From contig CASFWA010000001.1 of the NCBI GenBank assembly GCA_949298405.1, positions 285,127-349,126 of the forward strand: a stretch of 64,000 nucleotides of DNA, in the 5' to 3' direction. Below are positions 11,039 through 27,629 of this stretch, piece after piece (position 1 is the first letter of the stretch; each line of letters opens with the position of its first letter). A program made the position numbers and the translations under genes. Source of the DNA: an uncultured Pseudomonadota bacterium (GTDB taxonomy: Bacteria > Pseudomonadota > Alphaproteobacteria > Rs-D84). Below the pieces are notes generated by a model. That model had not been told where the DNA came from, did no database searches, and worked only from the letters and a program-made list of their open reading frames with translations.

Positions 11039-13981
11039 ATGAAAAAGTGGCTATTGTTTTCTGTATTATTAGCAAGTGTGGGGTTTAATGTAGATGCAGC
11101 AGTCCCACAGCAAAGACGCGGTTCTGCCAGTACACAAACGGCGGCAACGACTTCGTCTGTGCGTTCAAGTGCTGTGACTGCAAGAAGCGCGACTACTGCA
11201 CGTAGTGCAACGCAGACCACAATGCCGGCTGTTTCTGCACGTGCTGCAACAACAGGACGTACTACGGTTAATAGAAGTTCTACAAGTACCGCATCCGCTA
11301 CACCAGGTGTGGCTGCACGTGCCGCCACAACAAAAAGTGTTATAGGGTCTGGTACAAAGGTTGCAACTGCTACAGAAAATGTGATTGTTAGTGAAGAATG
11401 TCGCCAGAAGTATATGGGGTGTATGGATTCTTTCTGTATGCTGGATAATGATACAGGTGGACGCTGTATTTGTAGCGATAGAAACGCCGAATTAGATAGC
11501 GTTTTGGCAGAAATTGAAAAACTCGACCAACAAAGTTATCAAATGGCAACTGTTGGTGTCGAAAGAATAGAAATGGGCGACGCGGCTGATGCGGCAATAG
11601 CAAATGCTACTGCTGTTGCAGATGCTATATTAAACGCAGTTGATGAAAAAGAAGAAAGAAAATTAGATTTATCTTTGTGGGATACAACTTTTAGTTTTGC
11701 TGATGAAGATATTTTTGCAGAAGCAGATTCTTTGCAAAGTGCAATAGAAGGTAAAGAAGGTGATAGTTTATACCGTGCGGCATCTGATATATGTATGGCT
11801 CAAATCCCAGAATGTTCAAGTGAATTGGCTATGTTGCAGTTAATGTATTCACAGCAAATAAAATCTGATTGTACTGCTTATGAAAATAGTCTTAAACAGC
11901 AAAAAAATGCTAGCGCACAAAAATTAGCGGCTGCGGAAAAGGCTTTGCGTGATGCTGCGCTGGAACAGTATCAATCTGCTAATAAGTATGATTTGGGGCA
12001 ATGTACTGTTGAATTTAAAAACTGTATGATTACAACTGGTGGTTGTGGGGAAGATTTTGCAAATTGTGCTTCTGTCGCCGCATCTGATAATACAAATGTT
12101 ACACAAAGTACTTCAAAGAAAGCAAAGAGTTATAAAATTCAAGGCGCAGTGACAAGTATCGAAATTTCTGCTTCTACATATGATACTTTGGTCGCTAAAA
12201 AGCCTTTGTGTGAATCTGTGACAAAATCTTGCGTTGCAGTCGCAGATCAGGTTTGGGATACTTTCTTAAGAGAGGTCGCACCACAAATTAAGTCCGCAGA
12301 ATTAATTGCAGAAAATAATGCACGTCAGAATTGTGTCGGCTCTATTTCAGAATGTTTCCAAAAGGCTTGTAAAGATAATATCGATCCAAACGATCCAGAT
12401 GGTTCTTATGATATGTGTTTGACTCGTCCTGAAACGATGTTGAATGTATGTAAGATTCCTTTAAATGCTTGTGGAATTGATGCTTCCTCGGCAGAAAAAG
12501 CGTCTCAATCTCAGATTTGGGATTTCGTTGTTGCTAGATTAGCATCTATGCGTGTGGATTCTTGTACGACACAAGTTAAAGAATGCTTGCAATCAGAAGA
12601 CCGTTGCGGTTCAGACTATACACAGTGTGTCGGGTTGGATACGGATACAATTGTTCGTATGTGTCCTTATGATTCTTTGATTGGTTGTCAAATGGTATAC
12701 GGTGAAGATGAAATTCGTGGCGATGCGGTTTATGACGAATTGGCTAATATGGTTCAGGGCATTATGTTAAATATTGATAATAGTATGTTAACGGAATGCC
12801 AGAATGCTGCCAATGAAGCCATGATAAAAGTATGCGGTAGTTCTGAAAACTGTGATAATTTGACTGTTGAGGAGAATATCGGTGCGCGCTCTTTGGAATA
12901 TAAGATTTGTGAATATACTAATAGTGATGATAGTCTTGATATTGATTATGCAAGATGTAGAACAGATGTATCACAAATTATGGATTCTGAATTGGGGCGT
13001 GTCCATGGGGCAGTTGGTGCTGGATTAGGACCGGTAACGCCGTTTGCAGGTATTATAGATGGTACTATTTATTGGGAAAGTGTTGATTTTGATGAAGATG
13101 GAAAATTGATGAGTGTTGATGAATATCTTGCTGCCGTTGGTTCAGAAGGTGTTACAGAACAGCAGAAAGAAAAAATATCATCAGAACTTGCGGTTTTGCA
13201 ATCAAATATAAATGCGGCAATTTCTGCAATAGAAGCAGACCCGACAGTTCAATTCTGTATGACAGGGCGTGAAGTTCAGGGTATGCGTACGTCTCAAAGT
13301 GATACAAGACAAGTTATAGGTCGTAGCGGCGCAAATGAAGGACGTTTCCCAGAACTTACAAAACAGATGCGTTTGATGATTGCTACATCTGCTTTGAAAT
13401 CAGCAAAAGACAATTACTATAAAAAGTATGATGAATTAAGCGAAAAAATGCTGCAAGATTATGTCACCATCGGTGAAAGAATGGCAGAAATAGAAGGTGA
13501 AAATGCACTGGATGCACGTCGTGAAATTGCACGTGTTGCATGTATAAATTTTGCAGATGCTTCTATATTACCGAAATCGCCGAATCCACCTAAAAATGCG
13601 TTTGGTAAGGTTTTGGGTGCCTTGGCTTTTGTCGGAGCCGCTGTTGCAGCACCATTTACTGGTGGCTTGAGCTTGACCGCAACAATCGCTATCGGGGCTG
13701 GGTTGACTGGAACTGCGGCAATCGGATTGCTTGGAAATGTCGGCTCTGGTGGGGCAAATGGTGCGGACTCTTCACTGCAACGAGAGTTGATAGGATCAAA
13801 GTCGCTTAACCAGTGGAACTATAAGGAAACTATTACGGCGACATTCGAATGGGATACACTGATTTGTCATAAATGTGTAAGAAGTCAGCAGTGCAGTAAG
13901 ACTAAGAATCCATTGTTTGGTAGAAAGTACTGTAAGACTTGGGCAGACCCAGTAGAAACATGTGATGATACACAGTTCTAA
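11039..13981 (+). CDS. large secreted cysteine-rich coiled-coil protein with C-terminal glycine zipper (family member P1)
   Basis: Signal peptide MKKWLLFSVLLASVGFNVDA; R/S/T/A-rich tract; CRQKYMGCMDSFC...RCICS motif; two CGxDF/YxxC modules; G-rich hydrophobic segment; CHKC tail. ORF track start is 11021; ATG 11039 has the better RBS. Confidence 0.85.
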   Translation: MKKWLLFSVLLASVGFNVDAAVPQQRRGSASTQTAATTSSVRSSAVTARSATTARSATQTTMPAVSARAATTGRTTVNRSSTSTASATPGVAARAATTKSVIGSGTKVATATENVIVSEECRQKYMGCMDSFCMLDNDTGGRCICSDRNAELDSVLAEIEKLDQQSYQMATVGVERIEMGDAADAAIANATAVADAILNAVDEKEERKLDLSLWDTTFSFADEDIFAEADSLQSAIEGKEGDSLYRAASDICMAQIPECSSELAMLQLMYSQQIKSDCTAYENSLKQQKNASAQKLAAAEKALRDAALEQYQSANKYDLGQCTVEFKNCMITTGGCGEDFANCASVAASDNTNVTQSTSKKAKSYKIQGAVTSIEISASTYDTLVAKKPLCESVTKSCVAVADQVWDTFLREVAPQIKSAELIAENNARQNCVGSISECFQKACKDNIDPNDPDGSYDMCLTRPETMLNVCKIPLNACGIDASSAEKASQSQIWDFVVARLASMRVDSCTTQVKECLQSEDRCGSDYTQCVGLDTDTIVRMCPYDSLIGCQMVYGEDEIRGDAVYDELANMVQGIMLNIDNSMLTECQNAANEAMIKVCGSSENCDNLTVEENIGARSLEYKICEYTNSDDSLDIDYARCRTDVSQIMDSELGRVHGAVGAGLGPVTPFAGIIDGTIYWESVDFDEDGKLMSVDEYLAAVGSEGVTEQQKEKISSELAVLQSNINAAISAIEADPTVQFCMTGREVQGMRTSQSDTRQVIGRSGANEGRFPELTKQMRLMIATSALKSAKDNYYKKYDELSEKMLQDYVTIGERMAEIEGENALDARREIARVACINFADASILPKSPNPPKNAFGKVLGALAFVGAAVAAPFTGGLSLTATIAIGAGLTGTAAIGLLGNVGSGGANGADSSLQRELIGSKSLNQWNYKETITATFEWDTLICHKCVRSQQCSKTKNPLFGRKYCKTWADPVETCDDTQF

Positions 13982-13983
13982 AT

Positions 13984-14008
13984 AAAAGCCGCCAAAAGGC
14001 GGTTTTTA
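13984..14008. terminator. bidirectional intrinsic terminator
   Basis: AAAAGCCGCC-AAAA-GGCGGTTTTT between convergent genes. Confidence 0.75.
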
Positions 14009-15019
14009 TATTGTTTCTAAATCGCTTAGATTTTTTATAATCTTTATTCCTTGGGATTCCCATTCTGCGCAACGAGTTTCTAAATCCATTATATTTGTTT
14101 CTGCTAGATATAAAACAGGAACTTGTTTGTTGACAGATGTTCTTTCTAATAATTTTTTTATGGGCGAAGTTTTTCTTTTTCCTGCCGCAAACCAATCTTC
14201 GTTGTCCGCAATCCAGAAGTCGCTGTCGTTATGTATGGCGATAACTATATTTTGCGTTATTATCAAATCGTCGTCAATATTTACTTCCTGACCTTGTTTT
14301 ATTAAAATATTGATAAGGTCGTCTTGGATATTTGGTGCACTTTCGTTTGGTGCTTTTTTTGTCGGTTCTTCTTCGTCAAAGTTTATGTCTTGAAATACAG
14401 GTGTAAAATTCGGAACAGAAAAGTTCCCTTCTGAAAAATCTTCTTCTGAAAGATTTTCGCTTTCAAAATTAAAATCTGTCGGTAATGGTAATTCGCCTGC
14501 TGCTTGTGTTGCAGCAATTGTTTCTTTTACTGGTTCTTCGTTTTTTTGTTGCAATTCTGTGACATTACTTATATCAAAATTTGATTTTATAAAACTACGA
14601 TTGATGGTGCTGCGCGCACGTAAAAATGGTGCACGTAATTCCGCAGGTAGCCCTTGGGGAAATGTATCTTTTTCTTCTTCTTGTTCTTCTTTTTTTTCTG
14701 GTTCTGCTTCCGGTTCCTTTTTTTCTTCTGCAACAGGTTGCAAGAATTTTGGTAATGGAATTGTAAATAAAGGTTTCTTTGTCCTGATTATAATTGCAGT
14801 TGTTGCAGCATATAAGGGAAGGGCCGCCAACATTAATAATCCGAATACAAAACCTGGGAAACCGCGTAATTCGGCATGCATAAGTCTTATCCATTGGGCT
14901 TTTGAAAAAATATCAAAGTTGAATAAACCAAGCAAAATACCCCACATCAATGTTATATAGCATGCGGTCCATATCAGAGCATATTTGTTTGTTTTAAAAA
15001 AATCTAAGATTTTATTCAT
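14006..15019 (-). CDS. hypothetical membrane protein with acidic linker
   Basis: 337 aa; N-terminal hydrophobic helices (ALIWTACYITLMWGILLGLF, FVFGLLMLAALPLYAATTAIII); E/P/K-rich linker; C-terminal domain not recognised. Confidence 0.6.
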   Translation of the reverse strand: MNKILDFFKTNKYALIWTACYITLMWGILLGLFNFDIFSKAQWIRLMHAELRGFPGFVFGLLMLAALPLYAATTAIIIRTKKPLFTIPLPKFLQPVAEEKKEPEAEPEKKEEQEEEKDTFPQGLPAELRAPFLRARSTINRSFIKSNFDISNVTELQQKNEEPVKETIAATQAAGELPLPTDFNFESENLSEEDFSEGNFSVPNFTPVFQDINFDEEEPTKKAPNESAPNIQDDLINILIKQGQEVNIDDDLIITQNIVIAIHNDSDFWIADNEDWFAAGKRKTSPIKKLLERTSVNKQVPVLYLAETNIMDLETRCAEWESQGIKIIKNLSDLETI

Positions 15020-15155
15020 TTGTTAATATTATAGACAACAATGTATGTTTGTCAATATTTATTGCGGTTAATCTGGTAAGGTTTTTAGTCTAAAAAACAC
15101 TTTTTTTTAATGTTCTTTTAGGGTATAATTATAAAGATAAAAAGGGGGAGCTTTT

Positions 15156-17243
15156 ATGCAAAATTTGCGTAAGTTTTTTAGTACATCTTTTGCGGTACTT
15201 GGGGCGTTTGTCTTTGTAGGAAACGCGTATTCTGCTGAAGGTACAGCAAGGTCTGGTTATGATGTAAGGGGGCTTAACCGCGCTGGCGCGACACAGATGA
15301 CCGCATCACAACGTATGCCAACTATGCCGATTTTACCTGGAAACTCTGTCGGAAATTTGTCTCCAAATTTACCTACTGGTGATTCTTCGTCTGGTGGTAA
15401 CCCAGATAATCCAGACAATCCAGATGAACCAGATAACCCCAGTGAAACTGAATGTCCAGATGGTGGTGTGAAAGATTCTGATTATACAATTGATAACTGT
15501 ATGACTGATATTTTGTCTTGTGTTAATAATGGTGCTTTGCCTGGTGGTTTAAATGATTTGTTTAATGAAGATTTGCGTAACGCAATAGTTAATGGAATGG
15601 GGCTTTGTTCTGCACAAGTAGAAAGGTGTATAACTGAGGTACGTAGAGATTGTAAAAATATTTATCGATCTTCCGCAGATGTTTGGATTGATTTTAATGC
15701 GCGTAAAGTTCAACCAGAATATTATAATTTTGTTTTGCGTAAGACAGGTTTAACGCCAAATCAGGCAGAGAATACTTGCTGGTTGCTAGATAAAAATGCG
15801 TACGGTTCTTCTTTCAATGCGGTTTCAAATTCAGGTTCTGTAACTGCAGAGTATAATAAAAATGTTGGGGCTTATAACAGCCAAAGCGGGAATGTGCTTA
15901 TAAAGACTCAACCACAAGGGGTTCAGGTAAATAATAATAATCCTGGTGTTGATGGACAACGTGGATATTATGCTCGTTGGGACCCAACTACCGCTGAATG
16001 TTGGTTAAGAGTTGCTGCTTATAATAAAGATACTCATATTAAGAATAGTTGGTTGTTTGGTGCTGCTGGTGATGATCAGCCCGCAGAAGTATGGAAACAA
16101 GCGGGTGATACATTTACTTGCAATAAAGATTTGTTCGGGTTTTCTTTGATGAATAAAACAAGTACTGCAGCCGTTGTTGGTATCGGTGGTGGAACTTTGG
16201 TTGGTGCTGGGGTTGGTGCTATTGTGGGGCATGGGGCGCGTCCATTTGATTGCAGTATAAAAAGTCATCGTGAAATGTTGACAGATGAATTGCGTACAGA
16301 TGGTAATATTGGGTCCATAAGTGAATATCTGGAAAATATAATTCCTGCTAATATTGATGTTATGGATGAAGGACAGTGTGCAGAAGTTGTTGAATTGTAT
16401 GATAAATATAATCAGTTAAAGTCTGCATTGAAATTGTGTAATACTGTAGAAGTTGTTTCTGAAGATGTCGAAATCATTTCTACTAGCGCGATTAATTGTT
16501 CTGGTTTCGCGGTTTTAGATGATTGTTTCGGAGCGCTAGAGATTGCTAAATCTTGTGTCGGAAAGGGCTTTACAGATGTTCAGCAATGTGTTGATTTCTT
16601 GAATCAGCAGGCTGTCGCAGATGCAGATGCTGCTATTACTGGTAATACCGATACATTGTGTTCGTTTGAACCTTTGAATTTGGCTCGTGCCAAGGGAACA
16701 AGTATTTATTGTTCTAGCACTACAGATATGTCTTGTAAAAGTGCTGTAGAGATACAAGTTGATATGGAACGCTTGGATAAAGTATTTACTTATAACATAT
16801 CAGATTTGTTGCAAAATGGTGAAGATTCTAATATGTGGAAAAGTATTGGAATCGGTGCGGGTGTTGGTGCAGGTGCAGGTGGTTTGGCAACTGCAATAAC
16901 CGCATTCGTGGAACGCAGCAATATTAATTGTCGCGTTGGGGACGGTTTGGCTCAGGTTGGTTTCGGTAAATCTTATTCTATAGGTTCATTGAAAGACTTT
17001 TATGTAAAGTGGAATCTACGTTTGCCAGATACAATTTCTCCGACAGCAACTGTTGATGATTGTGAGTCTTGGAAACGTGCTTGTGCCACATTGACAGACT
17101 TAAATCAATGTAAAGCAGCACAAGTAAATTATAAACCAGAGGGTGCGGCAACTACTACATTAGTACCGACTGCGTGTACTGTATCTGGTAGTGCATGTAT
17201 AGAAAATTATCCAGTTGCTAAATCTTATGGTGCATGTGAATAA
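15156..17243 (+). CDS. secreted cysteine-rich protein with two glycine-zipper segments (family-related, P7)
   Basis: Strong RBS AAAGGGGGAG; signal peptide ending ...GNAYSA; PDNPDNPDEPDNP linker; many Cys; AAVVGIGGGTLVGAGVGAIVG and IGIGAGVGAGAGGLATAI. Confidence 0.8.
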   Translation: MQNLRKFFSTSFAVLGAFVFVGNAYSAEGTARSGYDVRGLNRAGATQMTASQRMPTMPILPGNSVGNLSPNLPTGDSSSGGNPDNPDNPDEPDNPSETECPDGGVKDSDYTIDNCMTDILSCVNNGALPGGLNDLFNEDLRNAIVNGMGLCSAQVERCITEVRRDCKNIYRSSADVWIDFNARKVQPEYYNFVLRKTGLTPNQAENTCWLLDKNAYGSSFNAVSNSGSVTAEYNKNVGAYNSQSGNVLIKTQPQGVQVNNNNPGVDGQRGYYARWDPTTAECWLRVAAYNKDTHIKNSWLFGAAGDDQPAEVWKQAGDTFTCNKDLFGFSLMNKTSTAAVVGIGGGTLVGAGVGAIVGHGARPFDCSIKSHREMLTDELRTDGNIGSISEYLENIIPANIDVMDEGQCAEVVELYDKYNQLKSALKLCNTVEVVSEDVEIISTSAINCSGFAVLDDCFGALEIAKSCVGKGFTDVQQCVDFLNQQAVADADAAITGNTDTLCSFEPLNLARAKGTSIYCSSTTDMSCKSAVEIQVDMERLDKVFTYNISDLLQNGEDSNMWKSIGIGAGVGAGAGGLATAITAFVERSNINCRVGDGLAQVGFGKSYSIGSLKDFYVKWNLRLPDTISPTATVDDCESWKRACATLTDLNQCKAAQVNYKPEGAATTTLVPTACTVSGSACIENYPVAKSYGACE

Positions 17244-17680
17244 ATTGTGCCACAGTAAAATAATTAAAAGCCTGCTGATTTTATTAGCGGGCTTTTTTAT
17301 ATAATTTGATGGCAGAATGTGCATCTAGATTAAGTTGTTATTAAAATAAACTTCCATGGTTGAAATCAACGATTAATTTCGAAGAATATTATTTATTATT
17401 AATGCTTTGGTATATATTATTAGGTCGTTCGCGATTTAATAAATGGATTAAGTCAAAAAATTAACTGAATATAAAACATAAATTGTCTTTATATTGTTTT
17501 TTTTCTATGTGTTTTGTGTGTTGTGGCGCATAGTAACATATTTCTTTATCGTAATTTTCTATTGTGGTATTTTGAATGCTATTTTTTATTAGGATATTAT
17601 AAATTATTATTAGAGAAATGCTTAGAAGTGTTATAATCATCGTATAAAAATCCCGCTGTATGCGGGACTTTTTTATTTAT

Positions 17681-19981
17681 TTAACTATTACTGCAACTTG
17701 TGGTTGAGAAACTTATTTCGACTTTACGGCATGCCTTGCAATTATTACTGGTTGCTGCGCATCCTTCAGATTGTTTACGAAATTCTGGTGTACACTTTGT
17801 AGAACCTTGACCTTCTGTTACTATGTTTTTACTTTCTATGTTTGATTGTATTAATGCTGTTTTTACGGATTCGGCTCGATTTTTTGATAGCTGATTATTT
17901 ATATTATTGTTACCTGTTTTATCTGTATGTCCAATAACGGTTATACAATAATTTTTATCTGAAGCCATTCGGTTGTTTACATCGTCTGCGAATGTTTTTA
18001 TTATCTGTGTAGCTTCGTCAGTTAATTCATAAGAATTTAATTCGAATAATTGACTTGCAGATAATGATATCGTTGAAGAAGATGGTGATTCTTGATTTAA
18101 TGGTAATATTTCTAAGATGTTATCTAATTTATTTGGTAAACTGGTGTTGTTGGGCGTTATTGATGCTATAGTTTGGTCTTTTGGTATACATTGATTTTTA
18201 CCAAAAGGAATAGAGTTTTCTGGACATTTTTCGCATATATTAAGATTTGAGTTATAAATTTTATTAGTGTCATTACAGTTGCAATCTGGATAAAACCCAG
18301 TAGCATCTTCTGGACATTTTGCGTTTGCTTCTTGGTCTGGTAATGCTTTTACATTATTTTCAAGACTTTTTAAAGGTGCATATTTTGCTTTAATATCATC
18401 AGAACTTTCTTGCGCCGCTTTTCGGTTTTCATTTATCGCCAAATTACCCACAATACCGACTGCTGCACCAACGCCTGCAGTAATTAAACCCGTTTTTAAT
18501 TGTTGTGCGGTATCTGCTTTTTGCGCTGCCCATGCAGCAGCGTCGGCACTGGTAGAATCTGATAGTGCTGTTGCCAAAGACGTATAAGCACCACCTGTTT
18601 TTCCTAAACCGACATCGTCATATAGACCTGTTTCTGCCTTATCCAGAATGGTTTCTGATTCTATACCAGGTGTTAAGCCTAGCGCTTCCTTACGGATTTT
18701 TAAATCTGCGGCTAATTGAACATACTCATTGTATAGTGAAAATAGTTGGTTGCCACCAGGTAGTTCAATTCCTGTCTCGCCTCCTTGTATGTTTTTGCCT
18801 TGACCATAGTCACAACGAAATGTTGCAAGGTATGCGGCCATGTCTTGTTCTGCGGCGGTATCTGCGCGTTGTTCGGATAGAGCAGATAAAGCCTGCATGC
18901 CTCCTATGCCCATAGCACCAATGCTGGCTGCACCTAATAATTTATTCGCAGTAGATTGTTCTTTCGCCTTCATTTCATCTGCGTTTTCCTGCAGTTCTTC
19001 AATTTCTTTTTTTGCATCTTCTTCTGAAAGTATCGGTTCGATACAAGATAAGAAGTCAGGGGCTCTTGTATAACCTTCTTTGCACTCGTCTATTATGCAA
19101 ACTTCTTGTTGGGTTTCTTCGTTATATTCTCTGTGTGCCTTTATCGCATTTTTTGGCATATGGTTGCAATCACCTACTATACAAATACCGTCTTTCGGAT
19201 CATAACCTAGGTCGCATTCTGTTGCGTAACATTTACCGTTCTTTAATTCACCTGCGGTTGCATGTTCGATTTTCGCAATTTGTTCCTTAGAGCAGGGACC
19301 ATCACTAGGTATACATGCGCTGCCATCATCGTTCGGAATATAATGGTCATTACATTTTTTTATCTCGCAAATTAGTTGGTTGTTTTCCCATTTATATTTT
19401 GCTTCTTTTGCATAGGGGTCTGTTGAAGTGCATCTTTCGCCAACCATATCTTTGCAATCGTCACCGTCTTCATTTAAAACATAACGTGGACCAACGCATT
19501 CAATCTTTTCACATTTTTCTGCTTTTTTATTTAGTTTGTATCCAAAAACACAAGCGTCTGGTACACAATAAACCCCGTTCCCATCTGGGTTTCTGGCGGT
19601 CATGCCAGATTTTGCATTTATTGCGGTAAGTTGTGCGGATGAACATGGTTTGCTTTCCCATATCGCTACAACTGTTACATCATTTATTTTGAAACTTTCT
19701 TCTTTCAAAGTGACTCGCAGATTTTGACCAGGTGATAAAGTTTCTGTTTTAAAACCGACAAAGGATATTTTTAAGTCGTCTTCACTTGGAAAGTTTGTTA
19801 TTGTAAAATTTCCGTTTATATCAGATGTTGTACCTGTGTTTGGTGTAGAAGATGCTGAAATGTTTGCGCCTGGTAATGGTTCTCCCATTTCGTCAAGAAT
19901 TGTTCCTGATACAGTTATCGGTTCTGCAAGTGCAGGTATTACGATTAATGTGGAAAAGAATGTGCAAAATATTTTTTTCAT
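17681..19981 (-). CDS. chimeric envelope protein: CarboxypepD_reg-like N-domain, Cys-rich repeats, glycine zippers, OmpA C-terminal peptidoglycan-binding domain
   Basis: ITVSGTILDEMGEPLPGANI...TSDINGNFTI...ISFVGFKT; repeated C..C..GY...C modules; C-terminal ...VIGHTDKTGNNNINNQLSKNRAESV (OmpA_C-like). Confidence 0.8.
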   Translation of the reverse strand: MKKIFCTFFSTLIVIPALAEPITVSGTILDEMGEPLPGANISASSTPNTGTTSDINGNFTITNFPSEDDLKISFVGFKTETLSPGQNLRVTLKEESFKINDVTVVAIWESKPCSSAQLTAINAKSGMTARNPDGNGVYCVPDACVFGYKLNKKAEKCEKIECVGPRYVLNEDGDDCKDMVGERCTSTDPYAKEAKYKWENNQLICEIKKCNDHYIPNDDGSACIPSDGPCSKEQIAKIEHATAGELKNGKCYATECDLGYDPKDGICIVGDCNHMPKNAIKAHREYNEETQQEVCIIDECKEGYTRAPDFLSCIEPILSEEDAKKEIEELQENADEMKAKEQSTANKLLGAASIGAMGIGGMQALSALSEQRADTAAEQDMAAYLATFRCDYGQGKNIQGGETGIELPGGNQLFSLYNEYVQLAADLKIRKEALGLTPGIESETILDKAETGLYDDVGLGKTGGAYTSLATALSDSTSADAAAWAAQKADTAQQLKTGLITAGVGAAVGIVGNLAINENRKAAQESSDDIKAKYAPLKSLENNVKALPDQEANAKCPEDATGFYPDCNCNDTNKIYNSNLNICEKCPENSIPFGKNQCIPKDQTIASITPNNTSLPNKLDNILEILPLNQESPSSSTISLSASQLFELNSYELTDEATQIIKTFADDVNNRMASDKNYCITVIGHTDKTGNNNINNQLSKNRAESVKTALIQSNIESKNIVTEGQGSTKCTPEFRKQSEGCAATSNNCKACRKVEISFSTTSCSNS

Positions 19982-19992
19982 TTTTTATATCG

Positions 19993-21492
19993 TTATTTTC
20001 GTTGTACTACACTTTTTGTTTCTTTTGATTCTGAACCCGCAGAAGAACTTGCGCCTGTTGTCGTAGTTTTTGCTTCATTACCTGATGCTTGTGCTGTTTT
20101 TTGTTCAGATGTTGAATTTGTTGTTGCAGGTGTTTCACCTTCTTTTTTACTACTATTAGAATTATCTTCGGATTGTGTGGCGTTAGAAGATGCAGGTTTG
20201 TCGCCATAGTTTTCCTGGTATTCTTTTTTTGCGTCTTTTAACGCACTTTCTGCTTTTTGTGTGTCTATTGCACGACTAATTGCACCAGATGTTAATGCGC
20301 CTGCAGCAACGCCAAGACCGGAACCCAGCAAACTTGATGTCGCAGATGTCTGTGTTCTGGTCAGTCTGTATGCATTTTCCATAAATGTTGTGACATCTAT
20401 ACCAAACCAATTAGGTGTACAATCAAATGTGTTTCCTGCGTACGCTTTTTTAGATGCATAAAGTGCAGAATCATCACCTGCATAAAATTCAACAGTATAA
20501 ACACAATCTAAACTACGTTCGTCAAACATAGCACCCAGCATGCGACATTGTTCCGCCATCTGGTCACGTAAATCATATAGACGTTCTTCGTCTTTTTGAA
20601 CTTGCTTCTCTGCATCTTGACGCAAAGTTGCAAAGACTTGCATAGTGCGATTCGCAAGACCATTATCTTGTTGTGTACAATTTTTTGCAATTGTTTCGCA
20701 TGCAGCAATCGCCGCATCGCCTGCGGCTTTGCCTAAACACTTGCTAAATGTTACCCCGCATTGGGTCATTATGCAGTCGTTGTATCTGTTCCCACAATCT
20801 ATCACAGCGTTATATGAAGCGAGACGTGCATTCATGTCGCGGTCTGCCTTTATTTCAGATGCAAACATTCTGTATTCTTCGCCATTGCATTCTGTTTCAC
20901 GACGACAAGAATCCATTTTGTTGCCCCAACTGGTGTCCGTGTCACCACTGCATTTAGAAAAGTCGTTACCGCATTTGCCTTGCATACATTTTCTTAAACC
21001 AATATCACATGCGTTTTGACCACTGGATAATGCGTTTTGCATTGTTTGTGTCGCTGTATTGGTCGCATCTTGTGCGTCTAATGCGGCGCGCTGGCGTTGT
21101 ATCATTTCTGCTAGTTCTGTGCTGGAAGAATCTGTTGCAGATGTACTGGTTGAACCTAAAACTTCGTCAAATTGTGAAGATTTATTTTCAATTACGATTT
21201 CTTCTTCTACTTCTGCGTCTTCTTCTACGGTTTCTTCTTCTTCATCGTCTGTTTCTGTGGTCGATGTGCTTTGACTTGGAGAAATGCTCATTGTAGGCAT
21301 CCGAGAAGTAATATTTGTTCTTGTCGCAACAGTCGGTCTGGATGCAGCAGAAGTTGTTGTCCCACGTTGAACAACTGCGCCATTGGAAGAGGTGGCAAAA
21401 AGTGCAATTACAGTTATGCATATCGCATGACTTAGTGTTCGCATAGTATGCGATTGTGATATGTAATGAAATTTTTTTATCATGCTCTTCAT
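19993..21492 (-). CDS. secreted cysteine-rich protein with glycine zipper (family member P5)
   Basis: Signal-like MRTLSHAICITVIALFATSSNGA (start may be 21444); acidic DDEEEETVEED tract; CMQGKCGNDFSKC and CIMTQCGVTFSKC modules; LLGSGLGVAAGALTSGAI. Confidence 0.75.
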   Translation of the reverse strand: MKSMIKKFHYISQSHTMRTLSHAICITVIALFATSSNGAVVQRGTTTSAASRPTVATRTNITSRMPTMSISPSQSTSTTETDDEEEETVEEDAEVEEEIVIENKSSQFDEVLGSTSTSATDSSSTELAEMIQRQRAALDAQDATNTATQTMQNALSSGQNACDIGLRKCMQGKCGNDFSKCSGDTDTSWGNKMDSCRRETECNGEEYRMFASEIKADRDMNARLASYNAVIDCGNRYNDCIMTQCGVTFSKCLGKAAGDAAIAACETIAKNCTQQDNGLANRTMQVFATLRQDAEKQVQKDEERLYDLRDQMAEQCRMLGAMFDERSLDCVYTVEFYAGDDSALYASKKAYAGNTFDCTPNWFGIDVTTFMENAYRLTRTQTSATSSLLGSGLGVAAGALTSGAISRAIDTQKAESALKDAKKEYQENYGDKPASSNATQSEDNSNSSKKEGETPATTNSTSEQKTAQASGNEAKTTTTGASSSAGSESKETKSVVQRK

Positions 21493-21503
21493 TATCTTTT
21501 TAT

Positions 21504-22370
21504 TTATTTTAATAGGTCACAGGCCAAATCGTAAAATTTACATAATTGTGTTGCCGCTGATTTTTCTGATTCATAACCAACTGCGCATTTGTTTGGCATA
21601 CTGCGTTCACAAACACTTTTTATACATGTTTCACGAGCTGTATTGTCTGTACATGCGGCCTTTGCATCAGATAATTTTTTGTCGCGTGCTGTTTGGTATG
21701 CAGTGACTATGTTGGATAATAATTTGTCTGCATTTGCAATTGCTGTATCGCGGTCAGATATAAGTGTGTCACGAATACTTGATATGTAATCATCACAACC
21801 GGTGGCTTCTACACTGCATGCAGCAAAAAAGTTGTTGAATTCTGCATCTGTTTCGCATGAACTAAAATCAGGACCACATTTTTTTGTGTCTATCATGCAT
21901 GCACGAATGTCTGTGCTGCAAGTTGTAGCACTGACCGGTTTCGCAGCAGCGGCACGAAGTTCTGTCATTTTTGCGCTGATACCAGCCGCTTTACAAGATT
22001 GTTCAATTAAACTGTCGTATACATCAGAAACATCGTCCGCAGTACAACCTTCTATTTTCTTTATACATTCGGCAGTTGCCCACGCATATCGTTTGCCGGG
22101 ATCCGATGGCGCGTCTTCTAATTCGTCTTCTGTTAGTATGTATTTGGTAGATTGCCCCAAGGTTAAACTGCGCATAGCATTAGAATTTGACGGTGTGCCA
22201 GCACTTGATGTTCCGCAATATTGACAGCGTGCCGCAGGGTTTGAAGATACATTTATTGCACATGCGGAATCAAGACAACGAGTTAAATTTGCTTGCGAGC
22301 AGGTTGCAGCAACGGAAATCGCTGGCATAAAATACAACCCAAGCACAAAAAATAAGGCTTTTTTCTTCAT
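21504..22370 (-). CDS. secreted cysteine-rich protein (family member P6)
   Basis: Signal peptide MKKKALFFVLGLYFMPAISVAA; CSQANLTRCLDSAC and CMIDTKKCGPDFSSC modules; 11-nt gap to the next gene. Confidence 0.75.
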   Translation of the reverse strand: MKKKALFFVLGLYFMPAISVAATCSQANLTRCLDSACAINVSSNPAARCQYCGTSSAGTPSNSNAMRSLTLGQSTKYILTEDELEDAPSDPGKRYAWATAECIKKIEGCTADDVSDVYDSLIEQSCKAAGISAKMTELRAAAAKPVSATTCSTDIRACMIDTKKCGPDFSSCETDAEFNNFFAACSVEATGCDDYISSIRDTLISDRDTAIANADKLLSNIVTAYQTARDKKLSDAKAACTDNTARETCIKSVCERSMPNKCAVGYESEKSAATQLCKFYDLACDLLK

Positions 22371-22444
22371 TTCTCTCTTTAGGTAAAATTATATCAAAAA
22401 ATACTATGCTGTGAAAGAGAAAAAAGATTTTTTTATTTTAACAG

Positions 22445-22473
22445 TTGACAAAAGTATTGTTTTGTACTAAATT
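22445..22473 (+). promoter_or_regulatory. sigma70-like promoter (TTGACA-17-TAAATT) for the 22505 gene
   Basis: Hexamers and spacing read directly in the divergent intergenic region. Confidence 0.45.
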
Positions 22474-22504
22474 ATAAGTGTAGAATAAAAAAAAGGAAAG
22501 CAAA

Positions 22505-23242
22505 ATGGCTTTAAATCTTAATAAAAAAGTTTTAATTCATACTGGTGCAGGTGTTGCGGCAGTTTTGTTGTTATTGTTCGGTGTTTATCAATGTTCTGAA
22601 AAGCAGGATGAACGTGAGGTAAATAATCAAAATATCGAACAACTTAAAGATGCTAATACTCAATTATCAAATGCAGCAGATGCGTTGAAAGAGGCAAACT
22701 CTAAAATCTCAGATTTATCCTATGCAAATGATGTACAGGCTGATTCCATTATTGTTCTGAATGATTCTATTGGTGTCTTAAATGATTCTATTGTGGTCTT
22801 GAACGATTCGTTGGCTATTGTAAAAGGTGACTTGGAAGATTGCAGAAATAGCAAAAAGCCAGTAGCGCCGGTAAAGAAAACTAAAAAGCCTGTAATTGTA
22901 AAACCAAAACAAGAACAGAAAAAAGAACAACCTGTTATTAATAATGTTATAAATAATAACATAAATAATAATGTTAATGGTGTTGTTGGTGCTAATGTAA
23001 AACTTGATGAAAATGCAAGAAATACAGGAGACATAACAATTGTAAATGCTGCTCAGACACCTAATAATGCAACAGTTGTTTTAGGTAAGGGTGCCGTAAA
23101 CGAAGGTACAATCACTATTAATAATGGTGGTGTTATTAATAACTATTACAATGATACTATTAAACAGGCTGCTGCAAAGTATGCTGCAGCTAGTGGTGTA
23201 GTCATTGTAAAAAGAACAAGAGTTATTCAACGTGTTCGTTAA
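22505..23242 (+). CDS. membrane-anchored repeat protein (heptad VLNDSI repeats, K/P-rich and N-rich tracts)
   Basis: N-terminal anchor VLIHTGAGVAAVLLLLFGVYQC; coiled-coil-like segment; in-frame 21-bp tandem repeats; KKPVAPVKKTKKPVIVKPK; INNVINNNINNNVNG. Confidence 0.7.
   Translation: MALNLNKKVLIHTGAGVAAVLLLLFGVYQCSEKQDEREVNNQNIEQLKDANTQLSNAADALKEANSKISDLSYANDVQADSIIVLNDSIGVLNDSIVVLNDSLAIVKGDLEDCRNSKKPVAPVKKTKKPVIVKPKQEQKKEQPVINNVINNNINNNVNGVVGANVKLDENARNTGDITIVNAAQTPNNATVVLGKGAVNEGTITINNGGVINNYYNDTIKQAAAKYAAASGVVIVKRTRVIQRVR
22748..22810 (+). repeat. three in-frame 21-bp tandem repeats encoding (I/V)(I/G/V)VLNDS
   Basis: attattgttctgaatgattct / attggtgtcttaaatgattct / attgtggtcttgaacgattcg. 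Confidence 0.85.
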
Positions 23243-23362
23243 ATAATGATTTTCCTTTAATTTTTAGACCCGCCTTTATGGCGGGTGTTTTTTGCGAAAA
23301 AGTTTTTCCTAGACATATAATTCTGTTGTGTGTTAAAATATTTTCCATAGAGAGAATTGTTA

Positions 23363-26300
23363 ATGAAATATATTAGAATTTTACTTTTTTCATTGTTTTT
23401 AGCACCAAGTGCGTTATTTGCTGCAACTAATGATTTTACTATTGCTGCTCAGTTATTGTCTGCTGCTAAAAATGCAGATATTCAGCAGGTACAAATTTTA
23501 ATAAATAATGGTGCAAATGTTAATTATGTTGATAGTACAGGGTTATCTATCGTTTGTACTGCGTTGATGAATAACGATATTCGTGCAGCACAGATTTTAC
23601 AAATGTATGGTGCAGATGCTTCAAAATGCGACCAGCAAATAAAACAATATAAAAATCGAACTACTACAGAAAGTAGCGGGGGATTATTTAGCGGGTTGTC
23701 TTCCGCCCAAGGTATGGCACTAGCGGCGGCGGGAGCCGCCGTTGTTGTAGGTGGTTTGTTTTTGTTAACGGATGTTCTTGACCCTGGTAATGAAAATGCT
23801 GGCTCTTCTTCTGGTGGAACAAGACCAGGTGGTGATGGGGGTGGTAGTGATAGTGGTGCGACTGCCAGTGGAACTATACCTGTGGGGCCGGCTTATTTTA
23901 CAAGTACGGGTGAGATTTCTTATAGTCAGGCGGCTTATTTATCTAATTTACAAAATTGGGATCCTAGTGCTGGTGGTATTCGTGAAGCGGATTTTAATTA
24001 TTTTAGACCGTCTGTTCAAACCTCTAATAATTATGTGACAGGGGGAATAACTGTTCCTATGCAAAATTATTTGTTAATGATGCATGGTTATTCCGCTTTT
24101 GCAAATGGGTATATGGGGCAGGCTACATTTCGTGATGAATCGAATAATCCTGTAAAGATTTTAAATCAAGCAGGTGGTGGTAAGCCTATGCTTGTTTCTT
24201 TAATTACTGCGAATGGGGTAAATCCAACAGGTTCGGCAGGGCGAGGATATGGAATTACTTATTCAGATAGCGCAAGTGCAAATTCAAATACATATACTGT
24301 TGATAAATATGCGAACTATTCTGCACCTTGTGTAGAAGGTGAAACTTGTGGCGCAGAACTTGTCGGTTATGATTTGTCCGGAAGTGGTACCGCCATGAAT
24401 CCTTTTGCTACGGCAAATGAAAATGCGCTGGCTAAGATAGTTGCAGGTTGGGAAGCAGGTGGGCGCGCCTATGGTGATTTGTATGGCTTTGTTCCTAATG
24501 GTCAGTTGGCGGTATACAGAACTGGAAATGGATATGGATTCGTTGATGTTCAAAATCCAACGCAAGGAGCGGTGGTCGGTACTTTGACGGATTCTGCATC
24601 AGGTGGAACGGCTAATACTATCGAAGCAGGGGATTCAATAACCTTAAATGGAAAAACTTATACCATTGCCGCGGCAACAACTGGGGCAGGGGTCACAAAT
24701 CCAACAATAGAAATTAATGGTACTACGTATAACCTTGTTTCAGAAAGTTCTATGATGATAGGTACTTGTACAAGCGGTTGTGGTGATGATGAAACTGATA
24801 TCGCAATATATGTCGGAACAGATGGTTATTATTATGTAAATACTTCGGGGAAAAATACTATCGATGCAGTTTACGTAGTAAATAACAACAATATATATGT
24901 TCAAAAAAAGTGGCAGGAAATTGATGTTATGAATTTCCAGGCTATGTATAACGCGCGTAATAGTGGTTCTGCGGCAATTGCAAATGCTGTTTTGAATCCT
25001 GAATCGCGTAGTACTTCTTATTTAACAACAGGGGAAATGGCATCATTATTTGCGTTGAATAGCGGTTTGGATACAAAAACGGTTTTTATGAATCAGATAA
25101 ACTCATATTACGATAATGATGATTCAGGAACTACTACACAGGGGGGCTATGCCAATACTCTATTTAATGGATATAATTCTAGTTTGCCTATTTTAGTCAT
25201 GCCTGCCGGTGAATTTGAATATGGGGTAGGTGATGGTAAGTCTTTAACTGTTTTGGACGCAACTTTCGAAAATTATGCACCTGCATTATATGACGATAAT
25301 TTAGAACATTTATTTATGACGGTTGTTGCGGTACAGCATTCTAAAGGTACTTCTGGTGCAGATAGTATAGAAGATTATGGAAACGGTACAGGAAGTGCAT
25401 ATGGTCCAATTTATCTTTCTATGTGGCAGGATAATAAAGGTACAGATACTACTGATGATGATGTTATTTATTCTTCGCGTAAATGTGGTTTGGCGGGACT
25501 TGGAATAAATGGTATTGACCCATGGTGCTTTTCAGCAGCAGGACCCACTGCAGAAATGGCAACTGCTTCGGCAGCAGGTGCAGTTGCCGCATTAAAAGGC
25601 GCATTTAATTATATGAATAACCAACAGATATTTACTTTGTTGGCGTTGACAGCTGACGGACCTTATCTTGGTACGACAGATGCAGGAACTTCTTTCACAA
25701 CAGACACTTTGGTTGCTTATTTGAAATCTATGTACTCTTTGCCACCTGATTATTATGCTGATAATTTAACAGGACAGGCTTATTTGGATGCTTTTGCAGA
25801 AGTTTATGGTTATGGTTTAATTAATTTGGAAAGAGCTATGACCCCTGGACATGCTATTTATTACTATAATGGGAATACGATTGTTTCTGATTCAGGTAAT
25901 GCTTATTGGCGTGCTGCAAGTAATACTATTTTCCGGCCTTCTGCGGCATTAAGTCCCAGTACAGCAAGAATTAGTGCGCCTTTCTTTGACTTTTTGGAAA
26001 GTGTAGATGGCGATATGTCTTTGCCGCGTATTTGGAAGAATGATTTTGCACTGGGGGTACAGGATAAGCGTGGTTTATATATGGGTGATGTTTTGGGCGA
26101 TTTTAAAACACGTAAGTCAGAACCTAATAAAGTTCAATTCGGCGATTTTGGCTTTTCTATGGCTGTGTCTGAAAAACCTTATGCAGATAATCTGAATGGT
26201 TTGGATAACATGCGCTTAGACTATTCTGTTGATAATTGGAATTTAGCCGCAGAATATCAACGCTATTTTACAGATGGTGCTTCCAGATTTGATGGTATGT

Positions 26301-27079
26301 CAAATCCTGTGCTTGGGTTGGCTTCAAACGCGATAACCTCTGATATCGTTTATAATATGGGTAAATGGTCTTTTGGTACACGTGCTTTTTCTGGTGCAAT
26401 AACAGATGAAGAATTATTAGATAATGACCCAACTGTTTCTTCACAATATAATCCTGCAAGACTAGGATTGATGCAAGGTATGCAATCAGATGTTTCTTGG
26501 AACGGTGAAAAATTTGGGTTTAAAACATCTATTGGTACAGCGCATGAAACAGATACTTTATTGGGTGCACAAAGTGGTGGATTATTGAATATGGGGCAGG
26601 GTAATACCTCTTATGTAGATTCTGAAATTCGTTATTCCCCATATGAGAAATTGAATTTTACTTTGCGTTCTACTTTTGCACATACTGAATCTGATGCAAG
26701 TGGACAATTTATACTTGGGTTATCAGATATTGAATCTAATGCCTTCGCCTTTGGTATTGATGCGGGTAATTTCAGTTTTAGTGTTTCGCAACCGCTTACG
26801 GTAAGTAAAGGTAGTTTACAATATGCTTATGCAGATTATGAAATTGTTGAGGTCGATGGTGGAAAGTATGATTTAGTTGTAAATGATACTCATATCGAAA
26901 ATGTTGATTTAAGCCCAGATGCAAAAGAATTACGTTTTGTTGGAACTTATCGTCATAATTTTGGACCTTGGACAGATGGTGCAATTGGTTTTATTTATCG
27001 TGTAAATCCTAATAATACGAGTGAATTTGGTAATGAATCTATATTTATGATGAAATTGAATCATAGACTAGGAATTTAA
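23363..27079 (+). CDS. large outer-membrane-type protein: N-terminal ankyrin repeat, degenerate subtilase-like passenger, C-terminal beta-barrel-like region
   Basis: Signal peptide; ankyrin-like LLSAAKNADIQQVQILINNGANVNYVDSTGLS...; S8-like remnants (MMHGYSAF, LVMPAGEF, YGYGLINLERAMTPG); alternating beta-strand pattern in the last ~300 aa. ORF track start 23357 is TTG; ATG at 23363. Confidence 0.65.
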   Translation: MKYIRILLFSLFLAPSALFAATNDFTIAAQLLSAAKNADIQQVQILINNGANVNYVDSTGLSIVCTALMNNDIRAAQILQMYGADASKCDQQIKQYKNRTTTESSGGLFSGLSSAQGMALAAAGAAVVVGGLFLLTDVLDPGNENAGSSSGGTRPGGDGGGSDSGATASGTIPVGPAYFTSTGEISYSQAAYLSNLQNWDPSAGGIREADFNYFRPSVQTSNNYVTGGITVPMQNYLLMMHGYSAFANGYMGQATFRDESNNPVKILNQAGGGKPMLVSLITANGVNPTGSAGRGYGITYSDSASANSNTYTVDKYANYSAPCVEGETCGAELVGYDLSGSGTAMNPFATANENALAKIVAGWEAGGRAYGDLYGFVPNGQLAVYRTGNGYGFVDVQNPTQGAVVGTLTDSASGGTANTIEAGDSITLNGKTYTIAAATTGAGVTNPTIEINGTTYNLVSESSMMIGTCTSGCGDDETDIAIYVGTDGYYYVNTSGKNTIDAVYVVNNNNIYVQKKWQEIDVMNFQAMYNARNSGSAAIANAVLNPESRSTSYLTTGEMASLFALNSGLDTKTVFMNQINSYYDNDDSGTTTQGGYANTLFNGYNSSLPILVMPAGEFEYGVGDGKSLTVLDATFENYAPALYDDNLEHLFMTVVAVQHSKGTSGADSIEDYGNGTGSAYGPIYLSMWQDNKGTDTTDDDVIYSSRKCGLAGLGINGIDPWCFSAAGPTAEMATASAAGAVAALKGAFNYMNNQQIFTLLALTADGPYLGTTDAGTSFTTDTLVAYLKSMYSLPPDYYADNLTGQAYLDAFAEVYGYGLINLERAMTPGHAIYYYNGNTIVSDSGNAYWRAASNTIFRPSAALSPSTARISAPFFDFLESVDGDMSLPRIWKNDFALGVQDKRGLYMGDVLGDFKTRKSEPNKVQFGDFGFSMAVSEKPYADNLNGLDNMRLDYSVDNWNLAAEYQRYFTDGASRFDGMSNPVLGLASNAITSDIVYNMGKWSFGTRAFSGAITDEELLDNDPTVSSQYNPARLGLMQGMQSDVSWNGEKFGFKTSIGTAHETDTLLGAQSGGLLNMGQGNTSYVDSEIRYSPYEKLNFTLRSTFAHTESDASGQFILGLSDIESNAFAFGIDAGNFSFSVSQPLTVSKGSLQYAYADYEIVEVDGGKYDLVVNDTHIENVDLSPDAKELRFVGTYRHNFGPWTDGAIGFIYRVNPNNTSEFGNESIFMMKLNHRLGI

Positions 27080-27212
27080 TATTTACATATTTGTCCGGCA
27101 AAACTTTCCTGTCAGTTTTTGACTGCGGGAAAGTTTTGTTTGTTAGAATACTTGATAATTTATATTTTTTTTATATAATATATGCCTCTGTTTATAATAA
27201 AGGTTACATAAA

Positions 27213-27629
27213 ATGAATATTTTTAATGGAATTGAATATATAAAAAATTTTTTTACTGCGCCTAAATTGTCAGAAGGACTTAGCCCATTCGCTGATGAAG
27301 ATATTTATTTATTATCCTGTATGGCTTCTGAAACGTGTTTTTTAAATGCTAAGGATGGTAAAAATTATTTCTATTATGTTTTGCATGAAAAAGGAAATAT
27401 GGATGTCGCAAGGTTTTTGTTCGCAAGAAATGGTTTAAAAGCAAGTGTTCATAAAAGCGAATATTTCTATACTCCTAAATCTGTATTAAGAATTTTGAAT
27501 AAAGATTTTGCTGATAAAACAGAGCAGAAAAAATTTGTGCGTTCTATTAAAGTTAATTATTACAATGGTGAAGATATAAAAAATCGTATATTACAAATTC
27601 GTACAGAAATGAAGCAGAAATCTAAATAA
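27213..27629 (+). CDS. hypothetical protein
   Basis: 138-aa ORF with its own terminator; no recognisable motif. Confidence 0.5.
   Translation: MNIFNGIEYIKNFFTAPKLSEGLSPFADEDIYLLSCMASETCFLNAKDGKNYFYYVLHEKGNMDVARFLFARNGLKASVHKSEYFYTPKSVLRILNKDFADKTEQKKFVRSIKVNYYNGEDIKNRILQIRTEMKQKSK

Follow-up and report, generated by a model that had tools for sequence, protein, structure and literature searches.

The DNA analysed here, referred to as the window, is a stretch of 64,000 nucleotides from an uncultured alphaproteobacterium (contig CASFWA010000001.1). Within it we studied a cluster of three minus-strand genes encoding Cys-rich exported proteins, the last of which ends in an OmpA-like peptidoglycan-binding domain. 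The three open reading frames (ORFs), which a first-pass annotation of the DNA had reported as encoding 288, 499 and 766 amino acids (aa) with gaps of 11 nt, were recovered with exactly these coordinates and gaps. The genes and the signal-like sites around them are:

21504..22370, minus strand: gene 1, ORF for an exported protein of 288 aa
19993..21492, minus strand: gene 2, ORF for an exported protein of 499 aa
17681..19981, minus strand: gene 3, ORF for an exported multidomain protein of 766 aa with an OmpA-like peptidoglycan-binding domain at its C-terminal end
22388..22415, minus strand: promoter-like site, TTCACA and TATAAT spaced by 16 nt and with TG as an extended -10, lying 18 nt ahead of the start of gene 1
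22445-22473, plus strand: divergent promoter-like site for a 245-aa gene
17651..17667, both strands: GC-rich, terminator-like hairpin with an A-run and a T-run on its flanks, 13 nt past the gene 3 stop

Gene 2 is separated from gene 1 and from gene 3 by 11 nt each; one homolog of protein 2 begins at M4, and a start a few codons downstream would widen the first gap to 20 nt. The promoter-like site in front of gene 1 matches the consensus at 11 of 12 positions and was the top sigma-70-like site on the minus strand between 17000 and 23400. On the minus strand, the hairpin behind gene 3 reads GTCCCGC-ATACA-GCGGGAT-TTTTAT. Inside the three-gene unit no promoter- or terminator-like site of comparable strength was found, all these calls being consensus matches and not proof of transcription.

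The identical order and strand of the three genes were observed in the related loci L001, L002, L003, L009, L011 and L012. When 80 species-level loci were compared, gene 1 was followed by gene 2 in 79 of them and the complete trio was present in 58, two more being cut by contig ends. The median gaps, computed from longest-ORF starts, were 9 and 14.5 nt, and the synteny of the trio held down to about 46% identity. The cluster had been described in the first-pass annotation as a tight operon. As far as organisation is concerned this description is borne out by the promoter-like site, the tight spacing, the terminator and the synteny, and from these sequence features we infer that the three genes form one transcription unit.

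Protein 1 carries a Sec signal peptide without a lipobox and 20 Cys residues, all of them invariant across 120 homologs. Sequence and profile searches of Pfam, NCBIfam and PDB, the latter including a PDB sequence-profile search, returned no relative. Hundreds of unnamed orthologs with 55-70% identity exist, as is also the case for protein 2. When the family profile was run against 1.84 billion representatives, 67 matches were obtained, all orthologs or fragments of them except for one spurious hit, the single large match (P0427, 840 aa), which was rejected as an unrelated repeat protein. By these searches, protein 1 is an orphan family.

Protein 2 likewise has a Sec signal peptide without a lipobox, followed by a low-complexity region rich in Ser, Thr and acidic residues, a disulfide-stapled helical core, a glycine zipper and a low-complexity tail. 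The following parts were delimited from an AlphaFold2 (AF2) model and from conservation:

20437..21015, minus strand: conserved Cys core, residues 160-352 (AF2 model and conservation)
20275..20337, minus strand: glycine zipper, residues 386-406, GxxxGxxxG with invariant G390, G392, G394 and G403
19996..20205, minus strand: variable C-terminal tail, residues 430-499, of low complexity in the window

The mature part contains 15 invariant Cys. The helical core between residues 160 and 340 was modelled confidently, with predicted local distance difference test (pLDDT) values of 85-95, and consists of two helix-loop-helix modules of the form C-x6-C-x4-CG-xx-F-xx-C together with long helices and a small beta-sheet. 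Within the trio C316, C330 and C358 one residue must stay unpaired. Neither sequence nor profile searches of Pfam, NCBIfam and PDB found a relative of protein 2, and a Foldseek search of the model against PDB gave no fold match (best E value 2.4). The zipper motif at residues 386-402 is canonical and invariant in 120 homologs, which agrees with the glycine zipper proposed for the 499-aa protein in the first-pass annotation, and the short motifs quoted there are present as well. Despite its invariance, the zipper region (residues 369-410) was left unmodelled by AF2 at a confidence below 50. In at least 41 of the 120 homologs the tail carries modules with 6-14 Cys, some of which are common to gene 3 proteins.

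A few short motifs of the protein 2 family were also recorded. Behind the signal peptide, a motif of the form A-VV-x-RG ... RP ... RMPT (residues 39-67) is conserved, and its RMPT part recurs as QRMPTMP in a neighbouring 695-aa Cys-rich protein (15156-17243, plus strand) and its orthologs; the motif containing RMPT may be a sorting or processing signal. About one quarter of the gene 2 proteins end in [RK]-x-V-x-x-R(K), which in the window is SVVQRK, as at 19996-20016. The idea that this C-terminal SVVQRK echoes the mature N-terminal AVVQRG in a head-to-tail manner was dropped as a general feature, being applicable to only about 28 of 121 homologs.

Protein 3 is the most composite of the three. 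Its family has a signal peptide and no lipobox, as all three families have signal peptides, and a lipoprotein anchor was rejected for gene 1 and gene 3 alike: T or K mostly precedes the first Cys, at a position that varies. From the N-terminus to the C-terminus, the following elements were identified:

19670..19912, minus strand: N-terminal beta-sandwich, residues 24-104, resembling CarbopepD_reg_2 and the N-terminal extension (NTE) of SusC
19043..19645, minus strand: Cys-repeat rod, residues 113-313, four C-x4-C-x2-[GH]Y-x6-9-C beta-hairpin units, CPL1/EGF-like
18347..19030, minus strand: central domain, residues 318-545, helical, the most conserved part of the family (most invariant columns)
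18875..18940, minus strand: Gly/Ala-rich hydrophobic helix 1, residues 348-369
18812..18814, minus strand: codon of C390 in the motif FRCDYGQG, an isolated invariant Cys and candidate for an intermolecular disulfide
18434..18490, minus strand: Gly-rich hydrophobic helix 2, residues 498-516, mean Kyte-Doolittle value 1.83
18188..18316, minus strand: second Cys cluster, residues 556-598, 6 Cys, beta-hairpins
17702..18076, minus strand: OmpA-like peptidoglycan-binding domain, residues 636-760, containing the motifs GHTD and LSxxRA

The two terminal domains had been named correctly as CarboxypepD_reg-like and OmpA-like in the first-pass annotation, and Pfam scores above the cut-offs, profile searches against PDB and Foldseek agree on them. 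Residues 24-104 matched CarbopepD_reg_2 (PF13715) with 57.9 bits (cut-off 32.2) and residues 645-729 matched OmpA (PF00691) with 63.3 bits (cut-off 27.2). A profile of 116 homologs searched against PDB retrieved the SusC NTE at 2.5e-18 and OmpA C-terminal domains at about 1e-17. In a Foldseek search with the AF2 model, whose beta-sandwich spans residues 22-95, the SusC NTE 9hfj was matched with a template modelling (TM) score of 0.87, a root-mean-square deviation of 1.4 Å and 40% identity. The description of this part as the fold found at the N-terminus of Bacteroidota TonB-dependent receptors is thus right for the fold, which here occurs in an alphaproteobacterium and as a variable and dispensable domain. 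The OmpA-like domain was modelled with pLDDT values of 85-92 and gave TM scores of 0.70-0.79 to 3td5, 5nhx and 4rha. Its GHTD and LSxxRA motifs align with those of YiaD and OmpA; conservation of D687 and R702 reaches 90% or more in the 116 homologs. We take these two residues to be the equivalents of the Asp and Arg that contact the peptide stem in the OmpA and Pal structures, and the predicted peptidoglycan-binding residues of the domain appear to be intact.

The C-x4-C-x2-[GH]-Y repeat occurs four times in protein 3, a count that was reached by none of 5000 shuffles and that agrees with the four or more repeats noted earlier. The rod formed by these repeats contains 18 conserved Cys and was modelled with pLDDT values of 80-89 (residues 110-315). 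Taken alone, residues 101-314 matched CPL1-like (PF21671) in three stretches with 31.3 bits (cut-off 27.4); in the scan of the full-length protein the match stayed below threshold, and a precomputed CPL1-like match exists for many homologs. The central region (residues 320-530), which contains both Gly-rich helices and the invariant C390, reached pLDDT values of only 30-50 in the AF2 monomer, and no Pfam match was obtained for the central domain at E<=10. Both helices contain GxxxG elements. Where two glycine-zipper stretches had been proposed for the 766-aa protein, we found Gly/Ala-rich helices in which the zipper motif is only partly canonical. The second Cys cluster, modelled as hairpins over residues 555-600, is followed by a variable disordered linker (residues 604-634), which in L001 is extended by 53 aa with extra Cys repeats.

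A close comparison was possible with the metagenome-assembled genome (MAG) L001 (9989-12448), whose flanking proteins are 95-99% identical and whose operon DNA is for the most part 94-100% identical. Within gene 3 the DNA identity falls to 0.73-0.77 in the tract 19300-19000 and to 0.55-0.85 in the tract 18700-17800. The latter spans the OmpA domain and the linker that is 53 aa longer in L001, and the last 16 residues of the gene 3 product are identical again. This allelic mosaic looks like the result of recombinational replacement of cassettes.

Three lines of evidence connect proteins 2 and 3. The first is that sequence modules have moved across the boundary between their genes. In L003, the tail of the gene 2 protein (659 aa) carries a beta-sandwich-like module and the Cys repeats that elsewhere begin gene 3, and the gene 3 protein of the same locus (528 aa) lacks the beta-sandwich and passes from its signal peptide directly into the central domain. 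An explanation of this 659+528 aa split as a frameshift or assembly artefact was rejected, since gene 3 there starts independently and with a signal peptide of its own, a 14-member protein cluster (P0126) represents this arrangement too, and two other modules behave alike. In other homologs the beta-sandwich of gene 3 is replaced. BLASTP comparison of gene 2 tails with gene 3 homologs revealed three separate common modules: one is 73-78% identical between gene 2 tails and gene 3 N-termini, the second (KYAF...PRY) is 36-49% identical to other gene 3 N-termini, and the third is 48-63% identical to the gene 3 region C-terminal of the OmpA domain. How such a module sits in either one gene or the other is illustrated by L011 (668+818 aa, gap of 8 nt) versus L012 (515+915 aa, gap of 6 nt). 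Movement of whole modules in this way is a clear natural case of fusion-type (‘Rosetta stone’) evidence for an interaction of the two proteins.

The second line is Cys parity. The number of Cys in the mature protein is odd in 117 of 120 protein 2 homologs (counts 14-29) and in 96 of 103 protein 3 homologs (counts 23-49). For protein 1 the count is even in 105 of 106 homologs, and once the signal peptide is discounted, even counts also apply to the window's other Cys-rich proteins. In protein 3 the odd residue is evidently C390, which on alignment is invariant, stands alone and lies between the two Gly-rich helices; the corresponding residue of protein 2 is one of C316, C330 and C358, with C358 favoured. 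The odd parity of both proteins thus predicts one intermolecular disulfide. As a third line, the segments most conserved in proteins 2 and 3 are those that AF2 fails to fold as monomers, a behaviour that would fit segments lying at an interface or embedded in a membrane. The general idea of a co-expressed, peptidoglycan-tethered envelope complex, put forward in the first-pass annotation, gains support from the module swaps and the conserved odd Cys parity as far as proteins 2 and 3 are concerned.

Altogether, we lean towards the view that the three products form a Sec-exported, disulfide-stabilised and lineage-specific envelope complex that is non-covalently tethered to peptidoglycan. The three proteins would be exported by Sec, oxidised in the periplasm, a DsbA-like protein being encoded in the window, and assembled into one complex. 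Beside protein 1, its conserved core would include two parts of protein 2, the Cys-bearing helical core and the glycine zipper, and from protein 3 the central helical domain that holds the two Gly-rich helices. Via their Gly-rich helices, proteins 2 and 3 would pack against each other, and a disulfide would join C390 of protein 3 to the unpaired Cys of protein 2, for which C358 is the likeliest candidate among C316, C330 and C358; the OmpA-like domain would tie the assembly to peptidoglycan by non-covalent binding. Peripheral Cys-rich modules, such as the beta-sandwich, the CPL1-like rod and others, would be interchangeable and could be attached to the C-tail of protein 2 or to either end of protein 3.

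As to topology, the Gly-rich helices of protein 3 would form a hairpin dipping into a membrane, with all module attachment points facing the periplasm. Modules of the protein 2 tail recur in protein 3 both at the N-terminus and in the C-terminal part behind the OmpA domain, and therefore all these attachment points are most likely periplasmic. Similarly, the Cys-rich modules that follow the zipper of protein 2 in 41 of 120 homologs place both sides of the zipper outside the cytoplasm, in an oxidising compartment, and thus speak against anchoring in the inner membrane. Judged by analogy to proteins such as YiaD and those of the SlyB type, the membrane into which the hairpin dips is probably the outer membrane.

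Several observations weigh against this proposal. Gene 3 is absent beside genes 1 and 2 in at least seven long loci of related genomes, so that the tether is not obligatory for the core pair. Together with the adjacency of genes 1 and 2 in nearly all loci, this identifies genes 1 and 2 as the invariant core, and the emphasis that had been placed on the OmpA chimera has to be shifted to them. Protein 1 is linked to proteins 2 and 3 solely by synteny. The assignment of shared modules to the same compartment is an argument from parsimony and no proof, and the co-expression and interaction assumed in the proposal are deduced from sequence. The unpaired Cys residues could also serve in homodimers, in ligand binding or as a free thiol. 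The Pfam families Gly-zipper_Omp, Gly-zipper_YMGG and Rick_17kDa_Anti did not match proteins 2 and 3 even at E<=10. Finally, allelic variation of the mosaic type seen in gene 3 is more typical of exposed than of periplasmic proteins.

The last point leads to surface display, the main competing explanation, in which the Gly-rich helices would cross the outer membrane and the variable Cys-rich modules would be exposed as an adhesin or coat, with the OmpA-like domain wall-bound below. We regard this arrangement as rather unlikely and keep it because the peripheral parts are so variable, both by domain shuffling and in the mosaic alleles that occur between genomes with 95-99% identical flanks. The divergent allele tract, however, also spans the OmpA domain, so that variation is no specific mark of exposure. 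Repeats of the EGF/CPL1 type and low-complexity linkers rich in Ser and Thr are typically found in exposed proteins, the neighbourhood encodes other probable surface proteins, namely an autotransporter with Chlam_PMP repeats and an ankyrin protein, and the genomes of about 1 Mb in relatives suggest host dependence. On the other hand, one of the shared modules lies C-terminal to the OmpA-like domain, which must be periplasmic, and two hydrophobic helices put the N- and C-termini of protein 3 on the same side. Nor was a beta-barrel or a known export route across the outer membrane found.

Placement in the inner membrane appears highly unlikely. Here protein 3 would be a two-pass anchor resembling MotB or TagL, the conserved 125-aa loop with C390 would be cytoplasmic, and the OmpA domain would approach peptidoglycan from the side of the inner membrane. 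The hydrophobicity of helix 2 is of transmembrane grade (Kyte-Doolittle value 1.83) and both helices comprise 21-22 uncharged residues; helix 1, however, is only weakly hydrophobic (about 1.4), and its flanks oppose the positive-inside rule, with three Lys on the periplasmic side and a net negative charge where the cytoplasm is supposed to be. OmpA-like proteins anchored in the inner membrane are well documented, MotB and TssL being among the matches, and a cytoplasmic loop would account for an isolated, partnerless, reduced Cys. An inner-membrane placement would leave unexplained why the Cys count is odd in protein 2, whose zipper is flanked by disulfide-rich modules on either side in 41 of 120 homologs, and AF2 did not predict the loop as a folded cytoplasmic domain. 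That there is no complex at all, and that three independently acting exported proteins are merely co-located and co-regulated in a larger island of Cys-rich envelope genes, would fit the dispensability of gene 3 in some genomes and the equal conservation of the whole neighbourhood (genes for 1240, 245, 695, 337 and 986 aa), which makes the synteny not specific to the trio, but is very improbable given the very tight gaps in dozens of genomes, the module exchange specifically between proteins 2 and 3, and the matched odd Cys parity in just these two among otherwise even Cys-rich proteins of the window.

The first-pass annotation had also treated the three proteins as members of one family with other proteins of the window. 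A family of large exported Cys-rich paralogs is indeed encoded here, and further features of the window are listed with it:

11021-13981, plus strand: large exported Cys-rich family, 986 aa
40204-42762, minus strand: same family, 852 aa
43181-45412, plus strand: same family, 743 aa
45466-47985, plus strand: same family, 839 aa
35333-39307, plus strand: 1324-aa autotransporter with Chlam_PMP (Chlamydia-type polymorphic membrane protein) repeats and a C-terminal autotransporter barrel
49441-51342, minus strand: MotA/ExbB-like protein adjoining another protein with an OmpA domain (370 aa), the two resembling a stator or Tol pair
53569-54396, plus strand: thioredoxin-fold protein resembling DsbA, which could plausibly oxidise the numerous exported Cys-rich proteins that the genome encodes

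The large family proteins (743-986 aa) match each other in BLASTP with E values down to 1e-138 and have no Pfam or NCBIfam match; several of them end in long Gly-rich hydrophobic stretches, and over 13 kb of the window is taken up by them and the 695-aa protein. With these paralogs, genes 1 and 2 share a BLASTP match of only 30-40 aa (E 0.002-0.01), and hmmsearch with the family hidden Markov models of genes 1-3 did not detect the large paralogs in the window. The hhalign probabilities of genes 1 and 2 against the large family span 44-71%, with 60% for the 288-aa protein and 71% for the 499-aa protein, the latter mostly from the signal peptide and the low-complexity N-terminus. For gene 3 the value was 1.8%, from the signal peptide alone. 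The motif C-x3-6-CG-x2-[FY]-x2-C, which sits in a helix-loop-helix of the protein 2 AF2 model, was found among the 41 window ORFs only in the proteins of 288 aa (once), 499 aa (twice), 986 aa (twice), 743 aa (once) and 839 aa (once), and is absent from gene 3. Global homology of genes 1-3 to the large paralogs beyond this short motif is therefore not supported, the hmmsearch being negative and the hhalign results borderline. Thus, a family relation holds weakly for genes 1 and 2, through one short Cys motif, and gene 3 has nothing in common with the large proteins.

In three of the at least seven loci without gene 3, a large-family Cys-rich protein comes next instead. These proteins, of 943-1138 aa with 38-57 Cys, are encoded after genes 1-2 on the same strand in more distant relatives:

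L066, 8624-11695: large-family protein downstream of genes 1-2
L085, 8616-12029: large-family protein downstream of genes 1-2
L089, 9330-12161: large-family protein downstream of genes 1-2

The large family and gene 3 may represent alternative partners of the core formed by genes 1 and 2.

The window is chromosomal, as it contains ribosomal protein genes, secY, rpoA, tpiA, grpE, pgk and clpX. The neighbourhood 10012-29064 is syntenic in relatives and none of its members has an assigned function. One flank of the trio encodes the 1240-aa ankyrin protein and the 245-aa membrane/coiled-coil protein, the other the 695-aa protein, a 337-aa protein with two transmembrane helices and an acidic region, and the 986-aa protein. 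The profile of gene 3 matched only one other ORF of the window, that of the 370-aa protein, through the OmpA domain alone. An SLT lytic transglycosylase, a peptidoglycan enzyme, is encoded in the window as well, and together with the DsbA-like gene it makes periplasmic disulfide formation and a peptidoglycan wall plausible.

The genomes closest to the window are MAGs of uncultured Alphaproteobacteria. In a wider scan, gene 1 relatives were encoded in 258 species-representative genomes, many of them labelled Candidatus Enterousia, whose hosts include human, chicken, mouse, ruminant, horse and rabbit (gut samples). The organism of the window is itself a gut alphaproteobacterium resembling Candidatus Enterousia, and no member of Bacteroidota. 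The relative L031 (OZ007020.1), which carries the locus, has a chromosome of 958,618 bp that is circular according to the isolate name. A relative of about 1 Mb indicates strongly reduced genomes in the lineage and may point to dependence on a host or partner.

The trio can be described as a lineage-specific conserved envelope operon of mostly orphan families, with a peptidoglycan-binding multidomain protein last in most genomes. Uncultured Alphaproteobacteria resembling Candidatus Enterousia occur widely in the guts of humans, rodents, birds and ruminants, and their cell surface is almost undescribed; a literature search aimed at this lineage and this protein combination found no description of the locus. 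The locus is present in hundreds of species-level genomes and is built largely from families without relatives in Pfam, NCBIfam and PDB. Wide conservation combined with such families suggests that it marks a lineage-defining envelope structure. Its role may be that of an envelope tether or scaffold, or may lie in adhesion; should the complex act as a tether to the wall or as a surface coat, it would have a bearing on the persistence of these bacteria in hosts and on their movement between them.

Among known systems, the closest architectural precedent for a tether combining a carboxypeptidase-regulatory-like domain with OmpA_C is PorE (PG1058) of the Bacteroidota type IX secretion system (T9SS), a periplasmic protein with a carboxypeptidase-regulatory-like beta-sandwich and, at its C-terminus, an OmpA_C-like domain that has been proposed to tie an outer-membrane-associated machine to the wall (PMC7192894). 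PorE's C-terminal domain is among the fold matches of protein 3. However, PorE is a lipoprotein with TPR and WD40 domains and without Cys-rich repeats or Gly-rich helices, whereas protein 3 has neither a lipobox nor a TPR or WD40 match. Unlike in PorE, the beta-sandwich of protein 3 is N-terminal, far from the OmpA domain and dispensable. The PorE model (NF052230) scored 27.2 bits against a cut-off of 600, in the OmpA part only. We know of no T9SS in Alphaproteobacteria.

For the pairing of Gly-rich helices with an OmpA-like domain in one envelope protein, YiaD is the closest precedent and the top single-sequence PDB match to the OmpA domain of protein 3. In contrast to protein 3, it has a lipobox and a tight zipper hairpin directly before the OmpA domain; the helices of protein 3 are 125 conserved aa apart. 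The YiaD family model (NF053611) reached 65.7 bits (cut-off 175) over model positions 98-185, the OmpA part. Glycine-zipper lipoproteins of the SlyB/YfgH group oligomerise in the outer membrane. Compared with these and with YiaD, protein 3 has large extra domains and two putative dedicated partner proteins. The likeness to SusC/RagA transporters is confined to the NTE, which has the same fold and is clearly similar in sequence: protein 3 has no TonB box, no plug and, in the AF2 model, no 22-strand barrel, and TIGR04056 gave 83.5 bits (cut-off 368) over model positions 1-88 of 981. Membership of protein 3 in the SusC, PorE or YiaD family was therefore rejected, all scores lying below the NCBIfam cut-offs.

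The chlamydial outer membrane complex, with OmcA and OmcB, is formed by co-transcribed Cys-rich envelope proteins that are cross-linked by disulfides. The present locus resembles it, by analogy only, in being an operon of very Cys-rich exported envelope proteins with a predicted intermolecular disulfide and a Chlam_PMP autotransporter nearby; no Pfam family of the OmcA/OmcB type was among the matches of the trio at E<=0.1 or E<=10. In contrast to Chlamydia, the organism of the window has peptidoglycan enzymes and a peptidoglycan-binding domain, and the Cys residues of the trio are apparently nearly all engaged within the same molecule, with one left unpaired per protein in proteins 2 and 3. 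As a speculation that we would give little credence, the operon and the surrounding Cys-rich, glycine-zipper island could build a disulfide-cross-linked envelope lattice, a peptidoglycan-pinned analogue of the chlamydial complex in a host-dependent bacterium with a reduced genome. The rigidity of such a lattice could shift with redox conditions, for instance when cells move between the anoxic gut and the outside, and recombination would exchange its peripheral modules.

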